From NCBI GenBank assembly GCA_050012035.1, contig JBEKHY010000005.1:2871-66870 (forward strand): a stretch of 64,000 nucleotides of DNA. Reading direction: 5' to 3'. Shown piece after piece: positions 14,651 to 35,985 of the stretch. Numbering within the stretch: position 1 is the stretch's first letter; the number at the start of each line of letters is the position of its first letter. Position numbers and translations under genes: made by a program. The notes under the pieces were generated by a model. That model did not search any database. It was not told where the DNA came from and was given only the letters and a program-made list of their open reading frames with translations. This DNA comes from Verrucomicrobiota bacterium (lineage in GTDB: Bacteria > Verrucomicrobiota > Verrucomicrobiia > Limisphaerales > UBA11358).

Positions 14651-14674
14651 CCTGATCTGGAGCTTGCCGCGAAC

Positions 14675-15682: not shown

Positions 15683-15707
15683 ACGTGAACCGTAAAATTG
15701 AAACAAC

Positions 15708-15941: not shown

Positions 15942-15987
15942 TCTTCCTCGCGAGAGATAAACGCGCGCCATTCATCGCCGAAAAAAG

Positions 15988-16734: not shown

Positions 16735-16836
16735 GTAATTGTTGCAACAAACCTATGGAATGTAGCGGCCGGATCACGCTCATGCCTGATGAGCGCAGTC
16801 CAATGGGGTTGAGTGCGGCCTGCCGCAAATTGGTTT

Positions 16837-17397: not shown

Positions 17398-17424
17398 AAA
17401 AGGCATTCTGATTTCGAGACCACC

Positions 17425-18522: not shown

Positions 18523-18560
18523 ACTTCCTTTCTCTGATTGGAACCAATTAGAATCATCCA

Positions 18561-19529: not shown

Positions 19530-19562
19530 TCGGTCACAGCGGAATACCTGCATCTAATTGCC

Positions 19563-20559: not shown

Positions 20560-22152
20560 TCAGGGGTTGCGCCGGAAGATGGCAACGCAGTATCCGCAGG
20601 CGATATCCTGCTGATTATAATAGGGCAAAAGCCGCGTCACCAGCTTCCTCATTAACGTCGGCTCGGAGGAAGTTCTGGCGACCTGTTTCCAACGGCTGTC
20701 ATTGCAGGTAAATTTTTTGTAAACGTCGCCGGAAGTGGCCGTGTTTAAAACCAGCACATTCACGCTCTGCCGCTCCGTTTCGGTCATGACGCTAAGATAA
20801 CGTGGCGAGTATAATTCTGCCGCCTTCGCCTTGACGGGAAAATAGCCCGGGTAATCACAGAAGACCACATCGGTGGACCGAATTTGTTGTTGGATCATGC
20901 GTTCGAGCTGACCATACTCCCGACGTTGATTTAGAGCCTGACCCAAAACTACTCGCAATGGTAATCCCACCAGCACTGAGCTGGCGAGCAACAGGAGCAC
21001 CAAAGTTTTTCGGAAACGTCCCAGTAAATCCCATGCCTGCGAGAGAACCGCAAAAACGACGATCATCAAAATTAAATAACTCATCCAATGATACTCTATC
21101 GGGTAGTGTATTAGTATCTCAAAGACGGCACCGATGGCAAAACCGCCCAAGAACCCGAGCAACACAAGGGACCTCAACTGCTTATCCGACCAGGTGCGAT
21201 GGCCGCCCGCCATAATTGCCAGCGCGGCGAAGGCCGGCAAAATGCCGAAATCGGCCAATTGATCATGGAAAATTGTCCGCACCCTCTGGAGCAGTTTAAA
21301 AATCAATGTCGGCTCGCCTTGGCTGCCAGCCAGTTCCTCGGTCTGGTGAAAAATCCGTGTTAGCCTGATATTTTCCAGCACACCGGCCAAGTGATGAGCG
21401 TAGTAAAAGGAAAAAAGCGCCAAACCACCAGAGACAATGCCGGCCATGAGAACCGCGAGCGGGACCAGGGCCTTTTTCCCCTCCAGAAGAAAGACCAACA
21501 GGCAAAGAAGTCCCAAATACGGAACCAGTTGCAGGCCGGCTGCAGGTGAGAGAAAGCCCGCTAAAAATAAGCAGGTGTATTTTGCATCGTGAGATTTCCA
21601 AGACCACGCCAGGAGGGCACTGGTACAGATCAACATGCCCAGACAATCAGGCCGCGCGGTTCGATAGACGAAGCACAACGGAAAACTTAAAAAGGCGGTG
21701 ACCACCATCCCGACCCGGGCAGGGGCCGACCGGATCCAGTTCTGCCGCTTCACTCCCAGCCAGAAAACGAACAGAGCCAAGGATGCCAAGGTGTAATTGA
21801 AAGCCCTGATCTGAACCAACCCCTGGCCAAAGGACTTGATCCAAGGGATCAGGGCGAATGCATAAAGCGGAACATTACAATTCCAGGTGAGTTCTTTGCT
21901 CTGCCACCACGCGGTGGAGGTAAAACCCTTTCCCTGGACAAAGTTTATTGCGGGATCAACAAACATCACCTCATCGCCCCAGCTCGTAGGATAAAGCTTG
22001 GCGGAGCACAAGTTGAACCCAAGAAGTAAAAGGGCGAAAGCGGCGACCACCATCGTTTCATTGGCCTCCAGCCAGACCACACATCTTTGCAGGAATTGAT
22101 CAACCTCGTGTCTCATTGAGACAACCTGTTTGTTCAGGTCAGGAATATCCAT
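20560..22152 (-). CDS. GT-C-fold glycosyltransferase (ArnT/PMT-like)
   Basis: 530 aa and polytopic. The first loop reads YPTSWGDEVMFVDPAINFVQGKG (acidic DE motif as in ArnT/PMT). G+C is lower than in neighbouring genes by eye. Confidence 0.6.
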   Translation of the reverse strand: MDIPDLNKQVVSMRHEVDQFLQRCVVWLEANETMVVAAFALLLLGFNLCSAKLYPTSWGDEVMFVDPAINFVQGKGFTSTAWWQSKELTWNCNVPLYAFALIPWIKSFGQGLVQIRAFNYTLASLALFVFWLGVKRQNWIRSAPARVGMVVTAFLSFPLCFVYRTARPDCLGMLICTSALLAWSWKSHDAKYTCLFLAGFLSPAAGLQLVPYLGLLCLLVFLLEGKKALVPLAVLMAGIVSGGLALFSFYYAHHLAGVLENIRLTRIFHQTEELAGSQGEPTLIFKLLQRVRTIFHDQLADFGILPAFAALAIMAGGHRTWSDKQLRSLVLLGFLGGFAIGAVFEILIHYPIEYHWMSYLILMIVVFAVLSQAWDLLGRFRKTLVLLLLASSVLVGLPLRVVLGQALNQRREYGQLERMIQQQIRSTDVVFCDYPGYFPVKAKAAELYSPRYLSVMTETERQSVNVLVLNTATSGDVYKKFTCNDSRWKQVARTSSEPTLMRKLVTRLLPYYNQQDIACGYCVAIFRRNP

Positions 22153-22303: not shown

Positions 22304-22768
22304 CAATCCCTGAAATTCAGAAACTGCACGAAGGCGGGGAATTCTTTTACGCGCACCGCCGCGATGACGGTTTGAAGTTCGTCCCGGCTCTTGCCAGTGA
22401 CGCGGATGGCGTCGCCTTGAATTTACCGTCGCGGATGATGCCGGTGATGTGCTTCACCGCGGTTGTTTCCATGCCCTGCTTGATTTTGATGACCTGCCGC
22501 GCGTGGCCGAGCGGGGAGACGTCCGGCCCGGCCTTTTCCAAGTTCCTGAAGCTGATGTTGCGCTTGGCAAGCCGGCCCACGACGATTTCCGCGCGCGCCT
22601 CGATTTTGAACTGGTCCTCGGCGGCGAGCTTGATTTCGTTTTTTCGAGGAAGATGTCCGCCTTGCTGCGTTCGAAGCCGAAGCGGTTGGCCAGTTCCTGG
22701 TTGGCTTGGTTGACGGCGTTCTCGATTTCCATCGGGTTGACCTGCGAAACAATGTCGAATGAAGGCAT
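22304..22768 (-). pseudogene. yajQ: yajQ (UPF0234 nucleotide-binding protein) disrupted by two frameshifts
   Basis: The protein is spread over three frames. Frame 1: MPSFDIVSQVNPMEIENAVNQANQELANRFGFERSKADIFLEK. Frame 2: [76 protein letters not shown]. Frame 3: [37 protein letters not shown]-stop. The shifts lie at the T6 run 22639-22644 and near 22416. Confidence 0.8.
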
Positions 22769-22865
22769 CGCCACAGCGAAAAATGGCCACCGGGAAAGAA
22801 AAGGCAAAAGCCACAACCAATTTGGTTGATTCCAAAACCGGCGTGGCATAGAACTCGCCAGCAAA

Positions 22866-24770
22866 ATGCCGACTGTTGTGCTCCTCTGGGTCTGGTTCTG
22901 CGCGTATCTCAATTGCGCAGGCTGGGCGCTTTCCGCGATTCATCAATTGAACGCCGGCGGCTACGCAGTTGTATTGCTGCTCGGTTTTGCCACCTTGATT
23001 TTCTGGAGACGAAGAACGTCCGCGCAAATTTTACCGCGGGTGCGCTGGCAAAAAATCCGCCGCCGGTTCTGTCGCCCGTTTCCGCTGGCGTTTTTGGTCC
23101 TGGCGGCGATGGCTTTGCTCGGTGGTGTTTTGCATGCGCCGAGCAATTACGACGCGCTGGCCTATCGCATTCCGCGCGTGCTGCACTGGCTGGCGGCGGG
23201 GCAATGGCATTGGATCCACACGATTTTCCCGCGCGTGAATCAGCGCGCCTGCGGCATCGAGTGGGTCTCCGCGCCGTTCATTGCCCTGTCGAAAACCGAC
23301 CGGCTGCTGTTCCTCATCAATGTCGTTTCTTTTCTGCTGCTGCCGGGACTGGTGTTCAGCGTTTTTACGCGTCTGGGCGTGCGCCGGCACGCGGCGGGGT
23401 TCTGGATGTGGATTGTGCCAACAGGTTATTGTTTTTTGTTACAGGCTGGCAGCATCGGCAATGATTTGTTTGGTGCACCATTCGCTCTGGCGGCGGTGGA
23501 TTTCGCACTGCGCGCGAAAAATTCCAGGTCCGCGCGCGATTTTTTTGCCTCTTTGCTGGCAGCGGCCTTGATGACCGGCGCCAAGACGAGCAACCTGCCG
23601 CTGCTGTTGCCGTGGGCCATCGCGATTTTGCCGGCACGCGGATTGATAAAACGCCGAATATTGCAGACGATGGCAGTTTGCGTTGTTGCGGTTCTCGCCT
23701 CATTTTTGCCGACCGCCATTCTCAACGCGCATTTTTGCGGGGATTGGACGGGTTGGAAAGCCGAAGGGACGCCACAACGAAACGCTCCGCTTTTGCGTGT
23801 GCCGGCAAATGCCGTGCTCATTACGATCCAAAATCTGACACCGCCGGCTTTCCCGTTCGCCAACACGTGGAACCGCTATACTCAACAAATCATGCCCGCC
23901 GGTTTGAGCCAGCGTTCGCACGAAGCGGTGGTGGAACCGAAGGCCGTTGAATTTCACACCGAAGAACTGCAAATAGAAGACAGCGCCGGATTGGGTTTCG
24001 GTGTCACAGGCCTGATTTTTATCAGCATGGTATTCGTAGCGATACATTGCAGCGGTCCGTTTTTGGGGTTGCAATTCGCCTCCGCCAAAGCCGTCTGGTG
24101 TACCGGCGTCCGACTTGCGCCGTGGATTTCGCTGTTGGCCCTGTTGAGCCAGTCGGAAGTCTATCCCCTCGGGCGCATCCTCGCGCCCTATTACGCGCTG
24201 CTGCTCCCGCTTCTCCTCGCCGGCCCCGCGCCGGAACAACCGGTCAAAAAAATTTGGTGGCGCGCGGCAGCCTTCACCATTTTTGTCATCGCGGCGGCGT
24301 TGCTCATCATTTCTCCGGCGCGACCGCTGTTTCCGGTGGGAATGTTTCTGGAAAAAATCCATAAGGCCGCCGCGCAACATCCGGCGCTGGCGCGTGTGGA
24401 AACCGTTTATTCGGTCTATCGCGAGCGTAACGACGCCTTTGCGCCGGCACGCGCCTCGTTGCCGCCGGACTTGAAGGTTTTGGGTTTGGTGGCCTATGAC
24501 GATCCCGAAACTTCGTTGTGGCGTCCGTTTGGTTCGCGCCGCATCGAGCACGTTTGCCCGCAGGATACCGTAGCGGATTTGAAGGCTCGCGGGGTCGAAT
24601 ACATTCTGGTGAAAACGGGCTGCTACGGGTTTATCTATTCACCTGAAGATTGGGCCAAACGCATGGACGCACAGGTGATCCAAAGAATTCCGCTTCGTCT
24701 CCGCGCCGCTGCCCCTGCGACCGATTGGTATCTGGTCAAAGTGCCGGAAGCGCCCGGCAGCTCCAAATGA
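22866..24770 (+). CDS. Polytopic membrane protein, paralog C (GT-C-like candidate)
   Basis: 634 aa. N-terminus YLNCAGWALSAIHQL..., first loop HAPSNYDALAYRIPRVLHWLAAGQWHWIHT. It aligns along its full length with the next gene. Confidence 0.6.
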   Translation: MPTVVLLWVWFCAYLNCAGWALSAIHQLNAGGYAVVLLLGFATLIFWRRRTSAQILPRVRWQKIRRRFCRPFPLAFLVLAAMALLGGVLHAPSNYDALAYRIPRVLHWLAAGQWHWIHTIFPRVNQRACGIEWVSAPFIALSKTDRLLFLINVVSFLLLPGLVFSVFTRLGVRRHAAGFWMWIVPTGYCFLLQAGSIGNDLFGAPFALAAVDFALRAKNSRSARDFFASLLAAALMTGAKTSNLPLLLPWAIAILPARGLIKRRILQTMAVCVVAVLASFLPTAILNAHFCGDWTGWKAEGTPQRNAPLLRVPANAVLITIQNLTPPAFPFANTWNRYTQQIMPAGLSQRSHEAVVEPKAVEFHTEELQIEDSAGLGFGVTGLIFISMVFVAIHCSGPFLGLQFASAKAVWCTGVRLAPWISLLALLSQSEVYPLGRILAPYYALLLPLLLAGPAPEQPVKKIWWRAAAFTIFVIAAALLIISPARPLFPVGMFLEKIHKAAAQHPALARVETVYSVYRERNDAFAPARASLPPDLKVLGLVAYDDPETSLWRPFGSRRIEHVCPQDTVADLKARGVEYILVKTGCYGFIYSPEDWAKRMDAQVIQRIPLRLRAAAPATDWYLVKVPEAPGSSK

Positions 24771-26689
24771 ATGAAGCCAAAGGCAACTCCGATCATGGAC
24801 GGCACCGGCGAGACACGACCGGTGCAGTCCGGTATTGGGTGTGGACCTGCGCATACCTCAACGTTGCAGGCTGGACGCTGTCCGCCCTGCACCAATTGAC
24901 GGCCGCGGGCTACGCGCTGGTGTTGGTGACCGGGTTGGCCGGTCTGTGCGCCTGGAAGTTCAAAATGTCCGGAACGGCTGTGCCCGGGGTTTGGTGGCCA
25001 AGGCATCTTCGCCGTTTTCGCCGGCCGTTTCCCGCGGCGTTCCTGATTCTGGCGATGATGGCTTTGCTCGGCGGGGTTTTGTATGCGCCGAGTAATTACG
25101 ACACGCACACCTACCGGATTCCACGCGTGTTGAACTGGCTCGCTGAAGGTCAATGGTACTGGATACACACGATTTTCGCGCGCATCAACACGCGGTCCTG
25201 CGGCATCGAATGGGTTTACGCGCCGTTTATTGCCTTGTGCAAGACTGATCGCCTGCTGTTCCTGATCAACGTCATTTCGTTTCTGCTGTTGCCCGGGCTG
25301 GTGTTCAGCGTGTTCACGCGACTGGGTGTGCGGCGCCGCGTGGCGTGGCATTGGATGTGGATTGTGCCGACGGGTTACGGCTTTTTGCTGCAAGCCGGGA
25401 GCGTCGGCAACGATCTGTTCGGCGCAACCTTCGCGCTGGCAGCGGTGGATTTTGCGCTGCGCGCAAAAGTTTCGCATTCCCCGCGCGATTTTTTTACGTC
25501 CGTGCTGGCGGCGGCGATGATGACCAGCGCCAAAACGGGCAACCTCCCCCTGTTGCTGCCGTGGGCGGTGGCGATTTTTCCGTCAGCCAAACTGGCTTTC
25601 CGCTGGCCCCTGAGAACGGCCGCGGCCGGCGCGCTCGCCATTCTCGCCTCGGCGCTGCCCACGATGGTTTTGAACGTGAAATATTGCGGTGACTGGTCCG
25701 GTCTGGCGCTGGAGACCGGCAATTTAAGGAACGATCCGGCGTTCCAGGCGGGAGCGAACGCCGTGTTGCTGACCATTGAGAATTTCGTGCCGCCCGTTTT
25801 CCCGCTGGCCGGAACCTGGAATCAGACCATGGAACGGGTGATTCCACCGAAGCTGAGCGCGCGTTGGCAACAAACCATCATGTGGCCCGACAACCGGTTG
25901 CAGTTGAAAGAAATGCAAATCGAGGAAAACGCCGGGCTGGGTTTTGGTGTTTCGATTTTGCTGTTGACCAGCCTGGTGGCGGCAATGTTTGCGAAGCCGG
26001 GACTCAGGCAACCGACCGGTCGGGCGACATGGCAAACGTGCGTGCGGCTTGCCCCGTTCATTTCACTGGGTGCGCTGATGACACAATCCCATATGTCCTT
26101 CTTCGCCCGGCTGATGGTGTCCTATTACGCCCTCCTGCTGCCGCCGTTCCTCATGTGCGCCGGGCAAGAATCGCTGCTGAAAAAACGCTGGTGGCGCGCG
26201 GCGGCTTTCACGGTTTTTCTTATGGCCGCAGGATTGTTGATCCTTTCTCCGGCGCGGCCGTTGTTTCCGATCCAGACCATTTTGGGACAAATTCAAATGC
26301 GCGCCCCCGATTCCAGCCGGTTGGCACGGATGGAGCGGGTTTATTCGGTTTATCGCCAGCGCCCCGATGCCTTTGCCCCGGCGCGTGAGATTTTGCCGCC
26401 GGGCCTGAAGCTTCTGGGGTTGGTCACCTATGACGATCCCGAAACTTCCTTGTGGCGGCCGTTTGGTTCGCGCCGCATCATGCACGTTTGCCCCGGCGAC
26501 ACGCCGGCGGATTTGAAACGGCGCGGCATTGAATACGTGTTGATGAAGCCGGACAGCATTGAAAGTTGGTTTGGCTGTTCGGCCGATGACTGGTTCAGGC
26601 GAATGAACGCGCAGATTGTCCGAAAAATTACACTGGAGCTGCGCGCGGCCGCAGGCCCACGCGACTGGTATCTGGTTAAATTGCGGTGA
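24767..26689 (+). CDS. Polytopic membrane protein, paralog D (GT-C-like candidate)
   Basis: 640 aa from the ATG at 24767. ATGA overlaps the stop of paralog C. YAPSNYDTHTYRIPRVLNWLAEGQWYWIHT and the C-terminal DDPETSLWRPFGSRRI...DWYLVK block are conserved with paralog C. Confidence 0.6.
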   Translation: MNEAKGNSDHGRHRRDTTGAVRYWVWTCAYLNVAGWTLSALHQLTAAGYALVLVTGLAGLCAWKFKMSGTAVPGVWWPRHLRRFRRPFPAAFLILAMMALLGGVLYAPSNYDTHTYRIPRVLNWLAEGQWYWIHTIFARINTRSCGIEWVYAPFIALCKTDRLLFLINVISFLLLPGLVFSVFTRLGVRRRVAWHWMWIVPTGYGFLLQAGSVGNDLFGATFALAAVDFALRAKVSHSPRDFFTSVLAAAMMTSAKTGNLPLLLPWAVAIFPSAKLAFRWPLRTAAAGALAILASALPTMVLNVKYCGDWSGLALETGNLRNDPAFQAGANAVLLTIENFVPPVFPLAGTWNQTMERVIPPKLSARWQQTIMWPDNRLQLKEMQIEENAGLGFGVSILLLTSLVAAMFAKPGLRQPTGRATWQTCVRLAPFISLGALMTQSHMSFFARLMVSYYALLLPPFLMCAGQESLLKKRWWRAAAFTVFLMAAGLLILSPARPLFPIQTILGQIQMRAPDSSRLARMERVYSVYRQRPDAFAPAREILPPGLKLLGLVTYDDPETSLWRPFGSRRIMHVCPGDTPADLKRRGIEYVLMKPDSIESWFGCSADDWFRRMNAQIVRKITLELRAAAGPRDWYLVKLR

Positions 26690-26740
26690 ACCCGAAACCC
26701 GTACTCGCCAAATGGCCGGGCGTTTGGGTAGGTTTGCCTC

Positions 26741-27937
26741 ATGAAAGAACCCGTGGAACTGAGCATCGTGATGCCGTGTCTGAACGAAGCGGAAACCCTC
26801 GCCCGTTGCATCGAAAAAGCACGGCTCGGCAGCCAGCGCGCGGGTGTGCGCAGTGAAATTGTCGTGGCCGATAACGGCAGCACCGACGGCTCACCGGCGA
26901 TTGCCGAAAAACTGGGCGCCCGCGTCGTGGCCGTGAAGGAAAAGGGCTATGGCAGCGCTCTGCGCGGCGGTATTCAGGCCGCAGCCGGCAAATGGATCAT
27001 CATGGGTGACGCGGACGACAGTTACGACTTTTCCGACATCAATGGCTTCGTCAAAAAATTCCAGGAAGGTTTTGAACTGGTCATGGGTTGCCGGTTGCCG
27101 GCCGGCGGCGGAACCATTTTGCCCGGTGCAATGCCGTGGAAAAACCGCCGGCTCGGCAACCCGGTGTTGACATTCATCGGGCGCTTTTTTTTCAAGTGTC
27201 CGGCGCACGATTTCCATTGCGGCCTGCGCGGTTTCACCAAGGAGGTTTTCGAAAAATTGGACCTGCAGACCACGGGCATGGAGTTCGCCTCGGAAATGGT
27301 CATCAAGGCCACCATCAGGAAGTTCAAAATTGCCGAGGTGCCGATCACGCTGCACAAGGACGGACGTTCGCGCCCGCCGCACTTGAAACCGTGGCGCGAC
27401 GGTTGGCGGCATTTGCGGTTCATGTTGCTTTACTCGCCGCGCTGGTTGTTTCTCATGCCGGGACTTCTGCTCTCGGCACTGGGATTCATTTTCGCCGCAG
27501 CCCTGTCGGTGAATGACATCAAAATCGGCGGCATCGAGTTGAACGTGGGCACACTAATGATGGCGTGTATGGCGGTAATTGTGGGTTTCCAACTGATTGC
27601 ATTCGCGTTCTTCACCAAGGTTTTTGCCATCGCCGAAGGTCTGCTGCCGGCGGACCCCAAACTCACGCGTGTCTTCAAGATTTTCACGCTCGAAAGAGGA
27701 ATTGCCACCGGCCTGGTCGTGTTGCTGGTGGGAACGATTTTATTTCTGCGCGCGCTGTGGCTTTGGCAACAAGCCCACTTCGGCCTTCTGCCGTCCATGG
27801 CTGAAAACCTGCGCCGGCTGATTCCGGCGGCAACGCTCATGATCCTGGGTGTTCAGGGTGTTTTCTCAAGCTTCTTCATGAGTGTGCTGGGCTTGAGAAC
27901 CGTCTCGCGCCGGCCACCAGCACCGGCGGCAAACTAA
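26741..27937 (+). CDS. GT2 polyprenyl-phosphate glycosyltransferase with C-terminal transmembrane domain (GtrB/ArnC/DPM1-like)
   Basis: LSIVMPCLNEAETL, ADNGSTDGS and MGDADDSYDF (DxD), followed by about 4 hydrophobic helices at the C-terminus. Confidence 0.75.
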   Translation: MKEPVELSIVMPCLNEAETLARCIEKARLGSQRAGVRSEIVVADNGSTDGSPAIAEKLGARVVAVKEKGYGSALRGGIQAAAGKWIIMGDADDSYDFSDINGFVKKFQEGFELVMGCRLPAGGGTILPGAMPWKNRRLGNPVLTFIGRFFFKCPAHDFHCGLRGFTKEVFEKLDLQTTGMEFASEMVIKATIRKFKIAEVPITLHKDGRSRPPHLKPWRDGWRHLRFMLLYSPRWLFLMPGLLLSALGFIFAAALSVNDIKIGGIELNVGTLMMACMAVIVGFQLIAFAFFTKVFAIAEGLLPADPKLTRVFKIFTLERGIATGLVVLLVGTILFLRALWLWQQAHFGLLPSMAENLRRLIPAATLMILGVQGVFSSFFMSVLGLRTVSRRPPAPAAN

Positions 27938-28267
27938 GCCTGTTTTTTGCCGATGATGCGATGTGAACCGGCCTTGAGAATTTCTAAGGATAACGTGGCT
28001 GTCCGAGCGTGGATTCCTGGCTCTGCCTAGTTATGCGGCATGGGTTGGATTTTATCGGCATTTCACAAATTAAATCGTGCCAGCTACCTTGACACCACCG
28101 CCATTAACCGGTGATCTAAAATTCATCCCGATGGCTGTTGTCACGCGCCTCTTCCAAGTGTTCAGATGACGCAAGCCTGCGGGGTGCAAAATTGTCACTG
28201 GAGTTTTTGGCATGCCGCTTGACTCTGAGTCGTGGGTTCCATGATGATAGCGAAAAAATAGTGGGAA

Positions 28268-29974
28268 ATGGCTCACAATAACAATTTTCACAATTTCTGC
28301 CACACCCCTGCAAAAGCGAATACCGGATCATGGACATGGCTGATTGGTATTATTGTCTTCTGCATTTCATTGCTCTCAGTAATCGCTCGTGCGCATTTCA
28401 TTCAAACGCGGCCCTTTGCCGGTCGCGTGGATGGGCAGGAGCCCGAGTCACATATTCTGGTCACCGATCTGGCTTTTGAACAAACTTCGTGGAAAACACA
28501 CCACTTCCTGCCCATTTTCACGCTGGGTGCGCCATACAACAAGTACATTAATCAACATCCCGGGGCGGCGTCGGCTGACCGGTTCGGAAATTATTATTAT
28601 TGCAGCACCCCCCCTCTCACATTTGTTCTGCCCTATGTTGCGGTCAAACTGGTGGGGGCAAGTCCGAGCATTGCAGGTTTGAGATGGTACAACATTGTCT
28701 TGCAGGTGCTGTCAGCGCTTGCCATGGCCGGGTTGGTTTTTCTTTGCACGAAGAAAAAAGGGGTTGAATTTGAACTTCGGTTGCTCGCCTCCGCCACGGC
28801 TGCGGTTATTTATATGACTGCTCCCGAATGTCTTAAAAGCCACTCGATCAATTTATGGGCCCAACAATTCTATGCTTTTTTACTGATCATCCAGATCATC
28901 TGTTTTTTATTTTATCCTTCGACGCTTCTGCTGTTCATCTTTGCGTTCATCGGGTGCCTTACGGATTGGACTCCCTACCTCGCCAATCTCGCGATGACTG
29001 GGATTGCGTTGTTTTCATATTGGAAAACCCGCGATTCCCGCGCGCTTCATCTCGCGATGGCTATCATCCTTGGATGCCTCTTGGCAGGCTTATGCATGAT
29101 CGGATGGTTTGCCACCGTCATATCCATTCACGATTATTTTCACAATTTGATCGTTCGCGGATCAGTCCGTGTAGGCTCTCTCTTGAGGACCGTGCGACTG
29201 ATCGTCCGGTATTCAAATTCTTTTGGCCTTTTCTCCCTCATCGGGTTGATGGTCCTTTTTTTGCGGCCGTGGTCTCGCGCCAAACAGCTGGTCGTGCCGC
29301 ACGGCGGGGTAATCCTTCCCGGCAAGGATCCTTTTCCTGTTTCGTTTCTCATTATGGGCGTCGCCCTGCTGGAGAATCTGTTGATGGGTGACCATGCCTG
29401 CGCTTTTTCGTACGACCGTCTGAAGGGGGTGCAATGTTTGGCGTTTTTCATTGTTTGGGGAACGACCTGGAGCCGGAGGGCTTCCGCGTGGGCCTTCGGT
29501 CTAAGTGTCATGGTTGGTCTGTTTTCCATCTGGTTCTTTTGGAGAACCTATGAAACACCGCAAGGATGGAATTATGTCGCCCATTCGGAACAGGAACGAT
29601 TGGGAGAAATCATCGTCAAAACCGTGTCGTCAAACGGCCCGGCGTTTTTTAACCGTGATGTGCGTGGTGCCGAGGTTTATTATGCGCATCGTAATATTTT
29701 TCAATTGGGCGACAATCCTGACGTGGTAGCCTTCGTGCAAGCGTGGTGCCGTCAGCACCACTTCACAGAGGGAACCTTGTATGAAATCTCCGGCCATTAT
29801 CCTTTTCCCGAAGAACAGGATCTTCCCCGGTCATTAAGGGTTCGCCGTGTCTATGCCAATGGGGAAATTATGGATCTTGGTATTTTTCAAATGCCCGAGA
29901 AACCGGGAGATTATCATGATCCGTTGGGTGATGCTACATCGGATTGGTTCCCCGATGCACCCGCTTGGCGTTGA
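28268..29974 (+). CDS. Polytopic membrane protein (GT-C-like candidate), lower G+C
   Basis: 568 aa with more than 10 hydrophobic segments and a soluble C-terminal domain. Codon usage is AT-richer than in flanking genes by eye. Confidence 0.55.
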   Translation: MAHNNNFHNFCHTPAKANTGSWTWLIGIIVFCISLLSVIARAHFIQTRPFAGRVDGQEPESHILVTDLAFEQTSWKTHHFLPIFTLGAPYNKYINQHPGAASADRFGNYYYCSTPPLTFVLPYVAVKLVGASPSIAGLRWYNIVLQVLSALAMAGLVFLCTKKKGVEFELRLLASATAAVIYMTAPECLKSHSINLWAQQFYAFLLIIQIICFLFYPSTLLLFIFAFIGCLTDWTPYLANLAMTGIALFSYWKTRDSRALHLAMAIILGCLLAGLCMIGWFATVISIHDYFHNLIVRGSVRVGSLLRTVRLIVRYSNSFGLFSLIGLMVLFLRPWSRAKQLVVPHGGVILPGKDPFPVSFLIMGVALLENLLMGDHACAFSYDRLKGVQCLAFFIVWGTTWSRRASAWAFGLSVMVGLFSIWFFWRTYETPQGWNYVAHSEQERLGEIIVKTVSSNGPAFFNRDVRGAEVYYAHRNIFQLGDNPDVVAFVQAWCRQHHFTEGTLYEISGHYPFPEEQDLPRSLRVRRVYANGEIMDLGIFQMPEKPGDYHDPLGDATSDWFPDAPAWR

Positions 29975-30282
29975 TCTCATGCCCCTCCCGGCGTAGCCAC
30001 ACCGTTACTCGCCGATACCCGTAGCGCGGACGGGGCGTCGTGCAGATTATTCCTGTTCATCTCCTCTCCATCACACCGTCGCGGAAAACGCCATCGGGAA
30101 TGCTGCCAGAGAAACCGTCGGGGAATGGGTATGGAGTCAGGATGATTCCTTGGTGGATGAGTCGGCCTTTGCCGCGAAGTCCCCGGTGCGCGCCTAAATC
30201 ACTACAACCTCGTCTGCGTTTCTCCGCGAGACGAAATAGCGCAACCGCAGCAGCAATCATGAAATTTTTGCGATGGAAATGG

Positions 30283-31146
30283 TCACAGTGCCAGCCTCCA
30301 CACCTGAAACGGACGGCAGATCAAACCCGCCGCCGCGTTCGGCGAAAAATCCGGGCTCGGGTTTTGATACATCAGGCTCATCAGGTTGTCGCTGCGGAAA
30401 TTCAAGCGCAGGCCGCAGACTTCCGCCGTTTTCAACCCGGCCCAGAGCAGCCGCCACGGTAGCGGAATGAATGTCACTTTTTTGTTCAACCCGCGGGCGA
30501 TTTCCGAAAGCAGTTGTTTGAAAGGCCATGGCCGTTCATGCGCGGCGGTCAAGATGCGCGGCGCGACCGCAATTTTTCCGTCGGCGACCTTCTCAATGAA
30601 CGCGGCCAAATCTTCCTGGTGAACCAGGAACTGGGCCTGCGTGCCGCCGCCGAAAACCGGCAGCACCGATGACTTGCGGACCTGCGCCACGAGCCGGCCG
30701 AACATGCCGGCCGGTTCACCGCCATAGACCAGTCCCGGACGCATGACAAGCGCGCCGTTGTCCCGCGCAATCTTTTCAATCTCCAATTTTGCCTTGCCGT
30801 AAAGCGAGCGGCAACCGTCGTAGGCGCTGATGGAGGAGAGACAAACGATTTTGCCAACCCCCGCCGCGCGCGCGGCCTGAATAAGTTTTCGCGTGCCCTC
30901 CACATTTACCGCGTGAATTTCCGCCCAGCGCAGCGGCTGGAAATCGTAGGCGCAATGCACGAGCACGCCGGCTGCCGCCAGCGCCTGCGGGGAAATTTCT
31001 GCGCCCAGTTGGAAAGCCACCGCCCGCGCGCCGGCTGCCGGCCGGCGGGTCAATTCCAGCATTTCCCAGCCGCGCGCCCCAAAATAATTTTTGAGGCAGC
31101 CACCGACGTAACCGTTACTGCCGGTGATGGCGCACAAGTTTTTCAT
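30283..31146 (-). CDS. Extended SDR, NAD-dependent epimerase/reductase family
   Basis: ITGSNGYVGG Rossmann motif; SSISAY ... YGKAK catalytic residues. Confidence 0.75.
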   Translation of the reverse strand: MKNLCAITGSNGYVGGCLKNYFGARGWEMLELTRRPAAGARAVAFQLGAEISPQALAAAGVLVHCAYDFQPLRWAEIHAVNVEGTRKLIQAARAAGVGKIVCLSSISAYDGCRSLYGKAKLEIEKIARDNGALVMRPGLVYGGEPAGMFGRLVAQVRKSSVLPVFGGGTQAQFLVHQEDLAAFIEKVADGKIAVAPRILTAAHERPWPFKQLLSEIARGLNKKVTFIPLPWRLLWAGLKTAEVCGLRLNFRSDNLMSLMYQNPSPDFSPNAAAGLICRPFQVWRLAL

Positions 31147-31234
31147 GGATTCATTTTAAATAATTCAACCACGAAATACTCGAAACACGCGAATAGAAAC
31201 GCAAATTTTTCGTGCCATGTCGTGTGTTTCGTGG

Positions 31235-32821
31235 TCAATCCATCCCGGCGGTTTCCCAGCCGATGCGATGGGCGTTGGCCATGACGGATAAAGTAATGGT
31301 CGTCGCCGGCGCGTCCGGCAGAACCGTCGCGTCCACCGCGTGCACGCGCGTCCAGCCGTGCGGCCGGCCGAGGCAATCGCTTTCGAACGGCTGCGGATTT
31401 TTGCGCATCGGTATCGAGCCGCCGCAGTGGAAGCCGCGTCCGGGTTCAGCCAGTTGCAGCATCGGCGGCAGAACGAGGCCGCCGAGCCGGCGCGATTGCC
31501 GGAGCAGTTCGCGCACGACACGTTTGACCGCGCGGCGGGTTTCGGGATTGGGTAACGCGTTCAGGTGCAGGCAGTCCTTTTCGCCGTCGCGTTTCAACGT
31601 CATTTCAATGGTCCGCGACTCGTCCGAGTGCAGGTAGCCCTGCACAATCACCATGCGTTCTTCAAGTCGCCGCGCCAGCTTTTCGAGCGGGCGTGCGAAC
31701 GCCCCGAACGTGTTCCGCACGGCTTCCCCGATCAAATCGCTGTAGGTGTAAATTTGCAGATGCACGGTATGGCGGCTGATGCGCGGGTGGCAAAGTTCGA
31801 TGAAAACCTGGCTGAGGGTGTAGAGCGATTCGGTTGGGACATTCCGGGTCCGGCGCGCCAGCACGAGCGGAAAAAGGAAATACTGGCTGTCGCGCAAAGG
31901 CAACGGGCGGTCGTAGGCGGATTGGGCGCGCAATAGAATTTGCGCCGTCGAAATGACGCCCGCCGCCAGATACGCGCGGTCCGCTTCAAACGCCAGCGGG
32001 GCGCGCGTTTGGCGGTGGAAACTTTCGATGGCAACCTTGCCGGCGCGTTCGCGCAAGGCCGTAACGATGACGTCGCGCTGGTACGAGAAATTGTTTTCCG
32101 CGCGCAGTTCGCGCACGGTGTCGGCGCTGTTGTAGATGCAGCCGTAAGGGCAGCCGTACATGCAAAAACCGCAATAGAGACAGCCGATGCCGCGGGGCCC
32201 ATCAGCGGCACGCACGGCCAGCCGCGCGCGGCCGAACCGCCAGCCGCGTCCACGCAGGGCGTCGCGATGACGGGAAAGATTCTGGAGCAAAACCGCGGCT
32301 TGCTGGCTGGGCTGAAGCACGTGCGGATGGTCACAATGCAACGGGAACCATTCCTCCAAATCGTCGTGTTGTGCGGCCAGCCCGGTGAGTTCAATCACGG
32401 CACGGTAATGTTTTTCCAATTGCGCGCTTTGGATGGGCCAGTCGGCGATGTCCGTGTTGCGATACGGCAGCAGGGTCGCGCCCCAGACGTTGCTGAGGCC
32501 GCCAAGGGCCAGCGATGGCCGCACACTGGTGCCGTGACCGTGCCAGGGAATGTGCGTTTCCGTTTCACGGTAGGGAAAGTCCGAACCGAAAGCCAGCTTG
32601 AGCGGGATGCCCTTGGCGTTGGCGGCCATGTTACCTTTCAGCCGGGCGGCGTCGGCCATGGCCCAGGCGGAAGGTTTCTTGTCGGCAAATAGACGGACGA
32701 TTCGGGCGCGATCGGGTTCCAGTTCGAGGCCGGCATCAAGCATCAACACGCTGGCTCCCCGCGCCAGCAACGCCTTGGCGCAGGCGACGCCCGCAGGGCC
32801 GGAGCCAATGACGCAATGCAT
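31235..32821 (-). CDS. GMC-family FAD oxidoreductase with embedded ferredoxin-type Cys motif
   Basis: VIGSGPAGVACA FAD motif; GMC C-terminal pattern (FHCGGSIPM...VHAVDATVLP). CLYCGFCMYGCP gives C-x2-C-x2-C-x3-CP at 32138-32182. Confidence 0.7.
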   Translation of the reverse strand: MHCVIGSGPAGVACAKALLARGASVLMLDAGLELEPDRARIVRLFADKKPSAWAMADAARLKGNMAANAKGIPLKLAFGSDFPYRETETHIPWHGHGTSVRPSLALGGLSNVWGATLLPYRNTDIADWPIQSAQLEKHYRAVIELTGLAAQHDDLEEWFPLHCDHPHVLQPSQQAAVLLQNLSRHRDALRGRGWRFGRARLAVRAADGPRGIGCLYCGFCMYGCPYGCIYNSADTVRELRAENNFSYQRDVIVTALRERAGKVAIESFHRQTRAPLAFEADRAYLAAGVISTAQILLRAQSAYDRPLPLRDSQYFLFPLVLARRTRNVPTESLYTLSQVFIELCHPRISRHTVHLQIYTYSDLIGEAVRNTFGAFARPLEKLARRLEERMVIVQGYLHSDESRTIEMTLKRDGEKDCLHLNALPNPETRRAVKRVVRELLRQSRRLGGLVLPPMLQLAEPGRGFHCGGSIPMRKNPQPFESDCLGRPHGWTRVHAVDATVLPDAPATTITLSVMANAHRIGWETAGMD

Positions 32822-33038
32822 AAATCGCTTTGCCACCGGGTGGCGGGATGCCCTCACGTCACTTGGATTCTGACGGAGTAACGCAACGGGAATTACAATA
32901 GAACGGCGTTGGATGAACTCAAGCGCATTTATCCCGGAAAGTGGGAACGGGCGTCATTTTTTATAGCACTCCATCGTTGCCCAAATTCAAGAAAGCATTT
33001 ATGGTACTAATTTGAATCATACACGAAAAGCCAGTCGC

Positions 33039-34691
33039 ATGAGTGTCGAATTACATTTCAACGGACAGCGAACCAGCGTCAGGCCGGGTTCGTCGCTGTT
33101 CGATTGCGCCGAGTCGCTCGGCGTCCATGTGCCGACATCCTGCCGCAAGCAGGGCAAATGCAAGGAGTGTGTCGTGGAGGTCATCGAAGGCATGGAGTGT
33201 CTCTCCCGGCCCGTGCCGGCGGAAAAACATCTGAAAGGCCCGTTCCGTTTGTCCTGCTCGTGCAAAATCATTGCTGATTCCGGCGTCGTCCGCTGCCACA
33301 CGATGCGGCGCGGAGAGATGAAAATAGAACGCCATGCGTTCCAACTGCCGGCGGGAAGTCAAAAATGGAAACTGGATCCGGCCGTCACCCGTGACGGCGG
33401 CCGGATTCTGCTGGACGGGGAGGAAATTGACCGCTCGACGGGACCGATCCACGGGCTGGCGTTGGATTTGGGGACCACAACTATTGTGCTCCGGCTCCTG
33501 AACCTGGAAACCGGCGAGATCGTTGCCGATGCTTCGTTTGAAAATCCACAACGCTTTGGCGGCTCGGACGTGATGGCGCGAATCCATTACGACACGCACG
33601 ACCCCAGCAAACTGCTGCAGCGGACACTCGCCGGCTATTTAAGCCATGCCATCGAGGAATTTCCAGTGGACCCGAAGACAATTTACGAACTGGTCGTCGC
33701 GGGCAATTCCACCATGCGTGACCTGTTCTTCCGCCTGAATGTTTATTCCATCGGCCAAAGCCCCTACCGTTCCATTACCGAACTGGAGATGGCGGACGGC
33801 CGCCGGACGACGACCAGCCTGAGCGAACCGGCGAAAAAATTCCTGCTGCCACTGCATCCCCGGGCGCGGACTTACGGCCTGCCGATCATCAGCGGTCACG
33901 TGGGCGCGGACGCCGCCGCCGGCATGTTGGCCGTGGATCTGGCAAATGAGGAGCGGCTGGTGGCCCTCATGGACATCGGCACGAACACGGAATTGATTCT
34001 GGGAAACAAAAACAAAATTTTCGCGGCGTCCTGTCCCGCCGGGCCGGCATTCGAGGGTGGCAAGATTGCCTGTGGCATGCCGGGACTGCCGGGCGCCATT
34101 GAAAAGGTTAAGCTCAACGCGGACGGCTCCTTTTTCGTGCAGGTGATTGGCGACGGTCCCGCGGAGGGCATTTGCGGCTCCGGCCTGGTGGATTTGTTGG
34201 GCGAACTGCTGAAAAACCATCGTATCAATGCCTTGGGCCGGTTTGAGCACGGCGAGGACCGGATTCTTCTGGATGTGAACAGCGATTCGCCGATTTATTT
34301 CACCGAAGGCGACATCAACGAGCTGGCCCAGGCCAAGGGCGCCAATGTCGCGGGCCTGCACATTGTCTTTGAGCGCTATGGAATCCGTTTTGAAGACCTG
34401 GACGTTTTTTATCTGGCCGGCGGTTTTGGACGGCATTTGAATGTTGAATCCTCGAAACGCATCGGTTTGATTCCGAACCTGGACGATGCGAAAATTCTGC
34501 AGGTCGGCAACGCCTCGATTGAAGGCGCCTGCATTGCCTTGTTGTCGCGGACCAAGCGCCGGGAACTGGAAGACATGGTCAAACGCGTGACGCATTGCCG
34601 CTTGGAAACCCACCCGCATTTCTTCGATTACTTCGTTGAAGGCTGCCAGTTTCGTCCCGTGGCATCCGCCAAGGCAGCGGCAGTCCGTTAA
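33039..34691 (+). CDS. RACo-like corrinoid reductive activase (2Fe-2S ferredoxin domain + ASKHA/DUF4445 ATPase)
   Basis: N-terminal C-x5-C-x2-C (SCRKQGKCKEC) plus a later Cys. ASKHA motifs LDLGTTTIVL, MDIGTNTELIL and GICGSGLVD. Confidence 0.75.
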   Translation: MSVELHFNGQRTSVRPGSSLFDCAESLGVHVPTSCRKQGKCKECVVEVIEGMECLSRPVPAEKHLKGPFRLSCSCKIIADSGVVRCHTMRRGEMKIERHAFQLPAGSQKWKLDPAVTRDGGRILLDGEEIDRSTGPIHGLALDLGTTTIVLRLLNLETGEIVADASFENPQRFGGSDVMARIHYDTHDPSKLLQRTLAGYLSHAIEEFPVDPKTIYELVVAGNSTMRDLFFRLNVYSIGQSPYRSITELEMADGRRTTTSLSEPAKKFLLPLHPRARTYGLPIISGHVGADAAAGMLAVDLANEERLVALMDIGTNTELILGNKNKIFAASCPAGPAFEGGKIACGMPGLPGAIEKVKLNADGSFFVQVIGDGPAEGICGSGLVDLLGELLKNHRINALGRFEHGEDRILLDVNSDSPIYFTEGDINELAQAKGANVAGLHIVFERYGIRFEDLDVFYLAGGFGRHLNVESSKRIGLIPNLDDAKILQVGNASIEGACIALLSRTKRRELEDMVKRVTHCRLETHPHFFDYFVEGCQFRPVASAKAAAVR

Positions 34692-34707: not shown

Positions 34708-35985
34708 ATGTTCGAACTGATTGACACAAAGCCGCCCGTCAATGTGCAGGAGGCCGAATACCGGCGGTTGCTTGGATATCCGAAGCAGCATGTGCCGGAT
34801 GGGCGGGCGCGCGAACTGGCTGGCCGGGCGCGAACATGGTATGCGGAAAACGGGAAGCCGTGGATTTATGCCCGGCAGACCGATGGCTTGAAGCTGAAAA
34901 ACAAACGGTTGCAGGTGCGTGGAACGGATTTCACATCGAAGCAGCTTCATGATCAATTCGTAGCCGCCCAGGCCCACACGGCGGTGCTCGTCGCAGTGAG
35001 CGCCGGGCGGGAATGCGAGGAAAAGGCGCACCAGTTCTGGCGGGAAGGAAAACCGGACGAATATTTCTTCACGGAGATGTACGGCTCGGCGGTGGTCGAG
35101 CATCTGGTGACGATTGCCAGCGGCCACATCTGCGGCTGGGCGGATCAACATGGCATGGCGGCTCTGCCGCATTACAGTCCGGGTTATTCGGGTTGGGACA
35201 TATCCGATCAAATCAGACTGTGGAAATTGATCCGGCAAAAAATGGGCCGAGATTTTCCCGGCGACATTCAGGTGCTGGACACCGGGATGTTGCGGCCCAA
35301 GAAATCGCTGCTGGCCGTATTCGGCCTCACGCGGCATCTGGACAGGGTGCGGGACCTGGCAGCGTTGATTCCCTGCGAAAATTGTTCGCTGCCGGGCTGT
35401 CAATATCGCCGCGCGCCCTACCGGCGTTCACCGCCGCAAATTGAAGACGTGCGCCGGCTCCAGAGCGGTGTGGCCGACGATGTGGACGCGCCTCTCACTG
35501 TCGGCTCGACGTTGAATCACCACGCCCGCTACAGCGTCAATACCCGCGCATTGCAGAAGTGGTCACAGGAACGGTTGCAACTGAAGTTTTTGGCGGATCG
35601 CTCGGTGGCAGCCCGCTTTCATTACGAAGGCACCACCTGCTCCAATCTGGGGCGGTCGCTGGCATTTCACTATGACGTGAGACTCGGACCGCCCGAAGAC
35701 GGTTACCGGATTCTGGCCACCGGTTGCGCTCCGGCTCCCGGCGACACTGGCCACCAATACCAATGTGAATATCTGAATGACTCCGAAGCACTCATGAACA
35801 GCATTGCCGGCGAGAAACCCCTGCTCGGCCGGCCTTTGAACGAGGTCCTGACCTGGGAACGTCCCTACGATCCTTCCGGCTGTTATTGCGATGCAGCGCG
35901 GCGCGAACACAAGTGGGGCCTGGTTTTTGAGGTGATCCATTACGCCCTGGTCCAACGCTTGAATAATGAGAGAGACGCGCAGTGA
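34708..35985 (+). CDS. MetH activation (AdoMet-binding reactivation) domain-like protein with extra ~190-aa C-terminal domain
   Basis: The first ~210 aa carry HYSPGYSGWDISDQIRLWKL...LDTGMLRPKKSLLAVFG (Met_synt_B12-type pattern). This is followed by C-x2-C-x4-C and an uncharacterised domain (FHYEGTTCSNLG...SGCYCDAARREHKWG). Confidence 0.6.
   Translation: MFELIDTKPPVNVQEAEYRRLLGYPKQHVPDGRARELAGRARTWYAENGKPWIYARQTDGLKLKNKRLQVRGTDFTSKQLHDQFVAAQAHTAVLVAVSAGRECEEKAHQFWREGKPDEYFFTEMYGSAVVEHLVTIASGHICGWADQHGMAALPHYSPGYSGWDISDQIRLWKLIRQKMGRDFPGDIQVLDTGMLRPKKSLLAVFGLTRHLDRVRDLAALIPCENCSLPGCQYRRAPYRRSPPQIEDVRRLQSGVADDVDAPLTVGSTLNHHARYSVNTRALQKWSQERLQLKFLADRSVAARFHYEGTTCSNLGRSLAFHYDVRLGPPEDGYRILATGCAPAPGDTGHQYQCEYLNDSEALMNSIAGEKPLLGRPLNEVLTWERPYDPSGCYCDAARREHKWGLVFEVIHYALVQRLNNERDAQ

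Follow-up and report, generated by a model that had tools for sequence, protein, structure and literature searches.

The block at positions 22866-32821 of the window (the whole 64,000-nucleotide stretch that was analysed), which comes from a soil/peat Verrucomicrobiota genome, combines a lipid-phosphate-sugar synthase with predicted membrane glycosyltransferases and a flavoprotein/reductase pair. The genes considered here are:

20560..22152, minus strand: Mem530, a polytopic membrane protein
22866..24770, plus strand: MemA, 634 aa, polytopic with a C-terminal soluble domain; predicted GT-C glycosyltransferase
24767..26689, plus strand: MemB, 640 aa, a MemA paralog whose start overlaps the MemA stop
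26741-27937, plus strand: GT2, 398 aa, DPMS/AglJ/ArnC/GtrB type with a C-terminal four-helix membrane domain
28268-29974, plus strand: Mem568, 568 aa, a low-G+C (0.50) accessory membrane protein; predicted GT-C fold
30283-31146, minus strand: SDR, 287 aa, an extended SDR (PF01370, E = 5e-14)
31235-32821, minus strand: flavoprotein, 528 aa, GMC-like, FAD-binding, with a CxxCxxCxxxCP Fe-S motif; predicted cytoplasmic dehydrogenase

The open reading frames confirmed the coordinates and orientations of the four genes singled out in the first-pass annotation (GT2, one membrane protein, SDR and flavoprotein), including the arrangement of the flavoprotein and SDR genes on a shared strand, convergent with the GT2 operon. 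For the flavoprotein, the ATG start at 32821 is backed by exact matches among public gene calls, the GTG at 32857 by none; the 640-aa call for MemB is present in identical public contigs. The G+C content of the Mem568 gene is 0.502, compared with 0.577-0.635 for those of GT2, SDR and flavoprotein. No flippase of the GtrA, SMR, MATE or Wzx type was detected among the ORFs at 20.5-36 kb or the intergenic small ORFs; in many three-component systems the flippase is encoded at an unlinked site. We found no published description of a GMC-SDR-GT2/GT-C system in the literature.

Judged by its sequence, GT2 belongs with the polyprenyl-phosphate glycosyltransferases. It matches PF00535 in Pfam (E = 8.5e-27), carries the DAD motif (the DxD of the GT-A catalytic domain) within GDADDS and has four predicted C-terminal TM segments (residues 236-385); PF26629 (GT2_TM_C) is precomputed for a gene identical to it. 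The top NCBIfam matches are AglJ (4.9e-37), dolichyl-phosphate hexose transferase (6e-25), PpgS (1e-18) and ArnC (4e-10), with scores all below the equivalog cut-offs, so that they do not give the sugar specificity. Among PDB entries, Pyrococcus Dol-P-Man synthase (5mlz, 1e-11) ranks first, followed by ArnC and GtrB sll0501. The closest characterised relatives thus use a polyprenyl phosphate acceptor, and the initial description as a GtrB/ArnC/DPM1-like GT2 with a C-terminal TM domain agrees with all of these matches.

None of the membrane proteins MemA, MemB, Mem568 and Mem530 had a sequence match in Pfam, NCBIfam or PDB. For MemA and Mem568, a GT-C architecture is predicted from AlphaFold2 models. 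The top Foldseek PDB matches of the MemA model (pLDDT 77, pTM 0.83) are all GT-C enzymes (ALG9, ArnT, STT3, EmbB, AftD, ALG3, Pmt4 and PglB), and so are those of the Mem568 model (pLDDT 79.5, pTM 0.83; STT3, ArnT at TM 0.51/0.53, Pmt4, DPY19, AftA and PglB); TM-scores of the two models to GT-C enzymes lie at 0.35-0.53, with a probability of 1.00. The third helix of MemA is followed by an invariant N94-Y95-D96...Y100-R101, and MemB is 61% identical to MemA across 624 aa (blastp). Genes of the MemA/MemB type occur in one or two copies per relative, and MemA adjoins GT2 in most related loci. In the case of Mem568, the homolog alignment contains a near-invariant E58-P-E60 and an invariant D104; like D96 of MemA and D60-E61 of Mem530, these are candidates for the acidic residues that GT-C enzymes conserve in the first extracytoplasmic loop. 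Its gene, inserted where the convergent GT2 and SDR genes meet, is a rare and variable accessory: only 20 homologs were found among 5.8 billion clusters, and within related genomes it occurs in one of 12, at the GT2/SDR junction in L009 only. Homologs elsewhere lie within a Wzx/Wzy/GT4 polysaccharide cluster alongside MemA paralogs. The predicted fold bears out the early view of the low-G+C membrane protein as GT-C-like; the conserved GT-C partner of the module, however, is the MemA/MemB pair (22866-26689), which lies outside the span originally annotated.

The SDR matches PF01370 (Epimerase) and RmlD_sub_bind, not adh_short, as expected for the extended SDR it had been taken for. Its profile matches are generic extended SDRs (NSDHL, MoeE5, NDUFA9, GalE, RmlD), with TGxxGxxG, S104, Y116 and K120 as conserved residues, and neither a TM segment nor a signal peptide is predicted. 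It is probably a keto-sugar reductase.

The flavoprotein is a distant member of its proposed class. The single sequence stays below the Pfam gathering scores for GMC_oxred_C (19.9 bits, cut-off 24.6) and GMC_oxred_N (14.4, cut-off 23), so the initial label "GMC flavoprotein" holds only at the level of the family profile, which does match GMC enzymes; some homologs have a precomputed PF05199 match. No match to PF01565 or ALO (VAO/PCMH-type FAD_binding_4) was found. When the profile, built from 49 diverse sequences, was run against PDB, the best match was the Burkholderia FAD-glucose dehydrogenase alpha (BcGDH alpha; E = 1.3e-17), in three collinear stretches covering the N-terminal, middle and C-terminal regions of the flavoprotein, followed by pyranose oxidase (1e-10), cellobiose dehydrogenase (1e-8) and then fructose dehydrogenase. 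Clustering with characterised soluble oxidases was not observed, the closest solved structure being matched at profile level only.

The FAD-binding GxGxxG motif (GSGPAG, residues 6-11) is invariant or nearly so in the 49 family members, and its start at residue 6 implies that the flavoprotein has no signal peptide. The four cysteines are almost fully conserved (C214 in 49/49, C217 in 47/49, C220 in 48/49 and C224 in 49/49). C214, C220 and C224 align with Cys212/218/222 of the 3Fe-4S site of BcGDH alpha, C217 being an extra conserved one, and His465 (48/49) aligns with the catalytic His476 (reference residues from PMC6719666). The second catalytic position of GMC enzymes, Asn519 in BcGDH, corresponds to Thr508 (39/49 members), with a conserved N516 nearby, so that the active site is atypical. 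We had to abandon the earlier term "oxidase", since the conserved four-cysteine Fe-S motif points to a predicted dehydrogenase that hands electrons on. The family comprises 1048 clusters at 50% identity (E < 1e-30), annotated at present only as "ferredoxin" or "choline dehydrogenase-like".

Since cholesterol and long-chain alcohol oxidases are found among the GMC enzymes, the pair might instead act on a lipid alcohol (polyprenol, hopanoid or sterol-like), comparable to cholesterol oxidase/3-beta-HSD or to DHRSX in dolichol synthesis; its link to glycosyltransferases would then reflect carrier- or membrane-lipid metabolism. Weak SDR matches to 3Beta_HSD (3e-5), HpnA, OleD, the sterol demethylase SdmB and NSDHL would fit, as would the loci in which no glycosyltransferase lies near the pair. 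On the other hand, the flavoprotein profile best matches sugar-oxidising GMC enzymes, with cholesterol oxidase reaching just E = 5e-4, and the recurrent neighbours are glycosyltransferase and glycan-cluster genes rather than isoprenoid genes. We consider this explanation improbable.

Co-conservation of the GT2, SDR, flavoprotein and GT-C genes across genomes, proposed at first pass as a check, was largely found for the flavoprotein-SDR pair, GT2 and MemA/MemB, but not for Mem568. In 55 of 64 informative loci (14/14, 22/24, 16/23 and 3/3 by bin of flavoprotein identity) the SDR gene comes immediately after the flavoprotein gene, and in P0192 the two are fused into a single protein. GT2 and SDR lie tail-to-tail in loci spanning 87% to about 46% flavoprotein identity. 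A GT2 ortholog or MemA/B is present within 8 kb in 11 of 12 loci above 80% identity and in 16 of 19 at 60-80%, the negative ones mostly lacking downstream sequence. At 45-60% identity, roughly one in two informative loci lacks GT2/GT-C genes within 8 kb; at 45-55%, the association was seen in L059, L070, L072, L083, L093, L095 and L098 and on the P0128 contig. Gene order varies: in L083 the SDR gene sits upstream of the flavoprotein gene, and in L035 it is directly followed by MemA. In other distant loci (L060, L082, L083, L102 and L104) the GT2 is a different, GtrB-like one, 313-342 aa long and with two TM helices at its C-terminus. Glycosyltransferase genes and other members of glycan clusters recur next to the pair (AsnB, acyltransferase_3, MBOAT, GT1 and GT4).

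The synteny among the Verrucomicrobiota relatives is in part inherited and not independent. At the extreme, a redox pair unrelated to the GT2/GT-C operon would simply have remained its neighbour within a single verrucomicrobial lineage. The loci with the full block are mostly 60-87% identical relatives, the GT2 operon and the pair occupy opposite strands, and YajQ is equally syntenic in this lineage without an obvious functional tie. The association outlasts rearrangements, however, over a locus G+C range of 0.49 to 0.71; the pair recurs with non-orthologous GtrB-like GT2s, and in L098 the order is GT2-GMC-SDR, all on one strand. Inherited gene order as the sole explanation therefore appears very improbable to us, and the possibility, envisaged initially, that the pair is not syntenic with GT2 and GT-C genes does not agree with the many genomes in which it is.

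With the family and fold assignments and this genomic coupling at hand, an oxidise-then-reduce re-shaping of a sugar by the flavoprotein-SDR pair, tied to glycosylation, is probable and well supported by context. We further propose, with slightly less than even confidence, that the block 22866-32821 is an extracytoplasmic "three-component"-type glycosylation module that also contains a step for tailoring the sugar. At the cytoplasmic membrane face, GT2 would load polyprenyl phosphate with a sugar taken from a nucleotide-sugar donor. The cytoplasmic flavoprotein would oxidise one hydroxyl of the lipid-linked sugar to a ketone, and its FAD would relay the electrons by way of the Fe-S cluster to an external acceptor (perhaps a quinone); the SDR with NAD(P)H would then reduce the ketone from the opposite face, for a net irreversible epimerisation. 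No signal peptide or TM segment is predicted in the flavoprotein or the SDR, so both would have to act before flipping. The modified lipid-linked sugar would then be flipped and used to decorate envelope glycans by MemA and MemB, the accessory Mem568 and perhaps Mem530. In this scheme we infer the order of steps, the oxidised position, the electron acceptor and the target glycan. A precedent for epimerisation of a lipid-linked sugar is the SDR ORF13 of Citrobacter youngae O2 (PMC11127046).

That the substrate would be lipid-linked rather than nucleotide-linked is likewise an interpretation. Alternatively, the pair could tailor a nucleotide sugar (e.g. UDP/GDP-hexose or ADP-heptose) before transfer, providing an unusual donor for GT2 or, elsewhere, for GT9. 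In L090 the pair directly follows a GT9-like gene, GmhA and HldE of ADP-heptose synthesis, a pathway that uses a nucleotide sugar and not polyprenyl phosphate; in an alphaproteobacterial clade (L015-L017) a GT9-like gene abuts the flavoprotein gene. Because distant pairs lie beside such genes or without any glycosyltransferase neighbour, a polyprenyl-phospho-sugar is not established as the substrate class of the family. Extended SDRs act mostly on nucleotide sugars, and the sequences of the SDR and the flavoprotein predict soluble, cytoplasmic proteins. Nucleotide-sugar epimerisation, however, normally takes a single SDR with bound NAD+, and GMC flavoproteins are not known to us from pathways of this kind. 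An outward Fe-S electron relay is better suited to a membrane-associated dehydrogenase, and the most constant neighbour is the membrane-anchored polyprenyl-phosphate-type GT2, tail-to-tail with SDR. We regard tailoring of a nucleotide sugar as unlikely, albeit less so than the other two alternatives.

For a lipid-linked substrate, a close functional parallel is DprE1/DprE2, the 2'-epimerase of decaprenylphosphoryl-beta-D-ribose in Mycobacterium/Corynebacterineae, in which a lipid-linked sugar is epimerised inside such a system. There, too, the genes of an FAD dehydrogenase and of an SDR reductase that uses NAD(P)H are adjacent, and the proteins lack signal peptides. The oxidise-then-reduce logic, the transfer of electrons to an external acceptor without a need for O2 and the consumption of the product by GT-C transferases are shared with our proposal. 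The proteins themselves differ: DprE1 is of the VAO/PCMH fold (FAD_binding_4), the flavoprotein here is GMC-like with an Fe-S motif, and DprE2 is a classical SDR (adh_short, about 250 aa) rather than an extended one (PF01370). Sequence homology goes no deeper than Rossmann-level similarity. In mycobacteria a UbiA-type enzyme makes the lipid-sugar from PRPP; here GT2 would make it.

A polyprenyl-phosphate sugar synthase together with GT-C is also found in GtrA/GtrB/GtrX, ArnC/ArnT, CsbB/GtcA/YfhO and the Citrobacter youngae pentofuranose system (PMC11127046). Such three-component systems resemble the present block in their variable, exchangeable GT-C genes and in optional cytoplasmic modifiers of the lipid-linked sugar that act before flipping. 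They differ in that no flippase gene was recognised in this block, that GT2 has four C-terminal helices (DPMS-like) instead of two, that up to four candidate GT-C genes occur per locus, and that tailoring, the work of one SDR, deformylase or deacetylase in those systems, would here take a flavoprotein plus SDR. Loading by a GT2, cytoplasmic editing and GT-C transfer outside are the proposed common features with ArnC-ArnD-ArnT, FlmF2-NaxD-FlmK and PpgS-Rv3779; there, a deformylase or deacetylase does the editing rather than a redox pair, and the targets are known (lipid A, arabinogalactan), whereas here envelope glycans are the putative target.

By profile, the best structural relatives of the flavoprotein are BcGDH alpha (PDB 6a2u) and the fructose dehydrogenase large subunit. 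While the 3Fe-4S ligands and the catalytic His align, the fourth conserved cysteine, giving the classical CxxCxxCxxxCP, and Thr in place of Asn in the His/Asn catalytic pair set the flavoprotein apart. Complexes of the BcGDH type are periplasmic, exported with a Tat "hitchhiker" subunit and docked to a cytochrome c subunit; the flavoprotein lacks a signal peptide, genes for either partner are absent from the block and the related loci, and the obligate gene neighbour is instead the SDR.

In its most specific form, our proposal is that an undescribed large family of cytoplasmic Fe-S GMC dehydrogenases forms, with a dedicated extended SDR, a polyprenyl-phosphate-sugar epimerase. This would be a functionally equivalent non-homologue of DprE1/DprE2 in Verrucomicrobiota and other soil phyla, making a donor without a nucleotide-activated form for a new GT-C sequence family. 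We put it forward tentatively and as doubtful in its full extent. Very few systems are known to edit a sugar after its loading onto the lipid carrier, the best known being DprE1/DprE2, a leading tuberculosis drug target. A second, independent solution with a different flavoprotein fold and an Fe-S relay would mean that the strategy evolved more than once. The flavoprotein family, with more than 1000 50%-identity clusters, would gain a function, as would a large GT-C family now annotated only as hypothetical. An unusual sugar would be expected in the envelope of peat/soil Verrucomicrobiota, which are abundant but little studied, and engineered glycan synthesis (glycoengineering) would have extra parts at its disposal.

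Mem530 may be a further lipid-sugar transferase, an uncertain assignment. Following TM1 it carries W58-x-D60-E61-V62, invariant in four homologs. At the GT2/SDR junction, relatives have either a Mem530-like gene (L008 and L055) or nothing, with a gap of 9-100 bp, and in L082 a Mem530-like gene is located upstream of the flavoprotein gene.

Four genes, encoding a family 2 glycosyltransferase (GT2), a low-G+C membrane protein, a short-chain dehydrogenase/reductase (SDR) and a flavoprotein, had been proposed in the first-pass annotation to form a module for the epimerisation of a lipid-linked sugar. We confirmed their coordinates and orientations, and gene families as well as genomic coupling speak in part for the proposal; the conserved GT-C partners, however, were found upstream of the span originally considered. 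The genes of the block, with Mem530 next to it, are:

20560-22152 (-): Mem530, polytopic membrane protein, further upstream than MemA and MemB
22866-24770 (+): MemA, membrane protein of 634 aa, upstream of the GT2 gene in the same operon-like run
24767-26689 (+): MemB, membrane protein of 640 aa, upstream of the GT2 gene in the same operon-like run
26741-27937 (+): GT2 (PF00535, 8.5e-27)
28268-29974 (+): Mem568, low-G+C membrane protein with a GT-C fold in its AlphaFold2 model
30283-31146 (-): extended SDR (PF01370)
31235-32821 (-): flavoprotein, distant GMC relative

The curated families nearest to the GT2 (AglJ, 4.9e-37; dolichyl-phosphate hexose transferase, 6e-25; PpgS, 1e-18; ArnC, 4e-10) each load a sugar onto polyprenyl phosphate, as do the enzymes with the nearest solved structures (Pyrococcus Dol-P-Man synthase 5mlz, ArnC and GtrB); the GT2 scores below the equivalog cut-offs of all four families. 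Four C-terminal TM segments are predicted, and public gene calls of an identical protein carry PF26629 (GT2_TM_C).

The flavoprotein starts with the ATG at 32821, which is the start annotated in public gene calls; for a GTG start at 32857, an exact-sequence look-up gave no match. The protein is a predicted GMC relative, a distant one only, and both GMC Pfam domains stayed below threshold. [quoted passage not shown] The family shares the nearly invariant motif C214-x2-C217-x2-C220-x3-C224-P, with C214 and C224 present in 49/49 members each, C217 in 47/49 and C220 in 48/49. Three of the cysteines are aligned by the profile with Cys212, Cys218 and Cys222 of BcGDH alpha, which bind the 3Fe-4S cluster that relays FAD electrons to the partner (PMC6719666). 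Moreover, His465 aligns with the catalytic His476 of BcGDH alpha, and Thr508 takes the position of its partner residue Asn519. The cysteine motif on the 3Fe-4S ligands, an FAD motif beginning at residue 6 and the lack of a predicted TM segment argue for a cytoplasmic Fe-S flavoprotein dehydrogenase, as which the protein is best described, rather than an oxidase. Of the earlier assignment as a GMC oxidase, the distant kinship is thus retained, but the Fe-S motif fits a dehydrogenase. The family comprises 1048 clusters (50% identity) at E < 1e-30, for which the only annotations so far are 'ferredoxin' and 'choline dehydrogenase-like flavoprotein'. On one contig (L032/L058), the main copy is preceded at a distance of about 8 kb by a second, 35% identical paralog (534-2066, +).

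In the SDR, the TGxxGxxG motif and the Ser/Tyr/Lys triad are intact, and no TM segments are predicted. A reading of the gene set in terms of hopanoid biosynthesis was discarded, as matches to HpnA/HpnB/HpnE were weak or limited to the Rossmann motif.

MemA and MemB are paralogs (61% identical) for which family and PDB sequence searches returned no match. In a fold search with the AlphaFold2 model of MemA (pLDDT 77, pTM 0.83), the top matches were GT-C enzymes only (ALG9, ArnT, STT3, EmbB, AftD, ALG3, Pmt4 and PglB). The same holds for the confident model of Mem568 (pLDDT 79.5, pTM 0.83), itself devoid of family matches: its top PDB matches were the GT-C glycosyltransferases STT3, ArnT (TM 0.51/0.53), Pmt4, DPY19, AftA and PglB. 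Mem530, searched with a profile of four sequences only, had no PDB or Pfam match, and neither blastp nor hhalign detected homology among the three membrane-protein families.

The low-G+C gene, regarded initially as the GT-C component of the module, indeed has a predicted GT-C fold but represents a rare insertion. Its G+C content is 0.502 versus 0.577-0.635 in the neighbours, only 20 homologs exist in a database of 5.8 billion clusters, and at the SDR/GT2 junction it occurs solely in the window and in one further locus (L009); in relatives, this junction holds a Mem530-like gene (L008, L055) or is empty. Homologs elsewhere reside inside a Wzx/Wzy/GT4 polysaccharide cluster, adjoining MemA paralogs. 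Mem568 is best interpreted as an exchangeable GT-C that was acquired horizontally and placed where two convergent operons meet, in line with side-chain glycosylation systems, whose GT-C enzymes are known to be modular (PMC11127046). Within a Wzx/Wzy_C/GT4/acyltransferase_3 polysaccharide locus (L100/L101, 5870-13314), four consecutive large membrane proteins are encoded: two are MemA paralogs, one is a Mem568 homolog and one a Mem568-like protein of 508 aa. Evidently, these new GT-C-like families also function away from the flavoprotein-SDR pair.

For gene context, we compared 12 genome and 80 metagenome loci with flavoprotein relatives of 36-88% identity, together with four contexts from representatives further removed. 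Counted by identity bin, the informative loci with the SDR gene directly 3' of the flavoprotein gene number 14/14, 22/24, 16/23 and 3/3, and in one distant representative (P0192) both are fused into a single protein of 782 aa. This fusion (L102, 8001-10349) combines the flavoprotein (residues 1-496, 44% identity) with the SDR (residues 510-779, 40% identity); upstream of it are genes for an extended SDR, a GtrB-like GT2 and an AsnB-like amidotransferase. Clustering of neighbouring ORFs left four widely common families, the flavoprotein, the SDR, the GT2 and MemA/B, while YajQ was common within the close lineage only.

The anticipated co-conservation with GT2 and GT-C genes was borne out for most loci above 60% identity: a GT2 ortholog and/or MemA/B lies within 8 kb of the flavoprotein gene in 11/12 loci (>80% identity) and 16/19 loci (60-80%), the exceptions being mostly loci without downstream sequence. 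Between 45 and 60% identity, by contrast, roughly half of the informative loci had no GT2 or GT-C neighbour within 8 kb. Typically, the GT2 gene is arranged tail-to-tail with the SDR gene (gap of 9-100 bp). The block is kept at 45-55% flavoprotein identity in L059, L070, L072, L083, L093, L095, L098 and the P0128 contig, its genes are ordered differently in L098, L083 and L035, and the G+C content of block-carrying contigs ranges from 0.49 to 0.71. In other distant loci the GT2 is of another kind, 313-342 aa long and ending in two TM helices (GtrB/ArnC architecture); AsnB, acyltransferase_3 or MBOAT genes often accompany it.

Other lineages show different contexts. A GT9-like gene abuts and precedes the flavoprotein gene in Alphaproteobacteria (L015-L017), and in a distant clade (L090, 6684-12462) genes for a GT9-like glycosyltransferase and the ADP-heptose synthesis proteins GmhA (SIS) and HldE are directly upstream of the pair; an HldD-type epimerase was not seen in the examined stretch. 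Because of these GT9/heptose contexts, it remains plausible that the pair acts on a nucleotide sugar. That it tailors a sugar for the GT2/GT-C glycosylation module has, in our estimate, slightly less than an even chance, and the narrower assignment of a lipid-linked sugar as its substrate is clearly less probable.

The data establish family and fold assignments and the genomic coupling, fusion included, whereas substrate, oxidation site, electron acceptor, direction of the SDR reaction and acceptor glycan are inferred. The model with the best support is the following. The GT2 would load a sugar onto polyprenyl phosphate at the cytoplasmic membrane face, the Fe-S flavoprotein would oxidise one hydroxyl and send the electrons outward, possibly to quinone, and the SDR would reduce the ketone with NAD(P)H to yield the epimer. 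After flipping, MemA, MemB and accessory GT-Cs would place the sugar on envelope glycans. No flippase gene was found in the block, the small ORFs between Mem568 and SDR not being membrane proteins.

In its proposed function the module would work like DprE1/DprE2, the mycobacterial decaprenyl-phospho-ribose epimerase pair, but it belongs to neither family: DprE1 has a VAO fold, which the flavoprotein does not share, and DprE2 is a classical SDR, whereas ours is extended. The closest relatives of the flavoprotein, the catalytic subunits of direct-electron-transfer FAD dehydrogenases, have export, hitchhiker and cytochrome partners that are missing here. The overall architecture is that of three-component extracytoplasmic glycosylation systems, for which epimerisation of the lipid-linked sugar by DprE1/E2 or a single SDR is already documented (PMC11127046). 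Our literature searches yielded no description of a GMC, SDR, GT2 and GT-C gene set; on genomic evidence, the module is a putative variation on a type of system already known.

Two genes transcribed divergently from the flavoprotein gene were rejected as module members, since near-identical contigs have them but the other loci do not:

33039-34691 (+): reductive corrinoid-enzyme activator of the RACo type (Fer2 domain plus the middle and C-terminal RACo domains)
34708-35985 (+): protein of 425 aa without family match, directly after RACo

A promoter/terminator scan of 22-33.2 kb gave counts no higher than in shuffled sequence. Between Mem530 and MemA lies a YajQ-family gene (22347-22835, -), which keeps its place beside the block in most relatives from the Verrucomicrobiota; a functional link is not obvious. 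Just upstream of the block, a second, Arn-like sugar module extends from 13466 to 20372 (+), with Mem530 convergent to it:

13466-14650 (+): nucleotide-sugar dehydrogenase
14675-15682 (+): FabH-like KAS III
15988-16734 (+): FabG-like SDR
17425-18522 (+): PseC/ArnB-like aminotransferase
18561-19529 (+): extended SDR epimerase/dehydratase
19563-20372 (+): second, small GT2 (269 aa), DPM1/PpgS-like

Together with Mem530, this module suggests a pathway for a lipid-linked N-acylated amino sugar with its own transferase. With this set of sugar-nucleotide genes, the region of 13.4-32.8 kb as a whole is an envelope-glycosylation island. The Verrucomicrobiota genome that carries it stems from peat or soil metagenomes.
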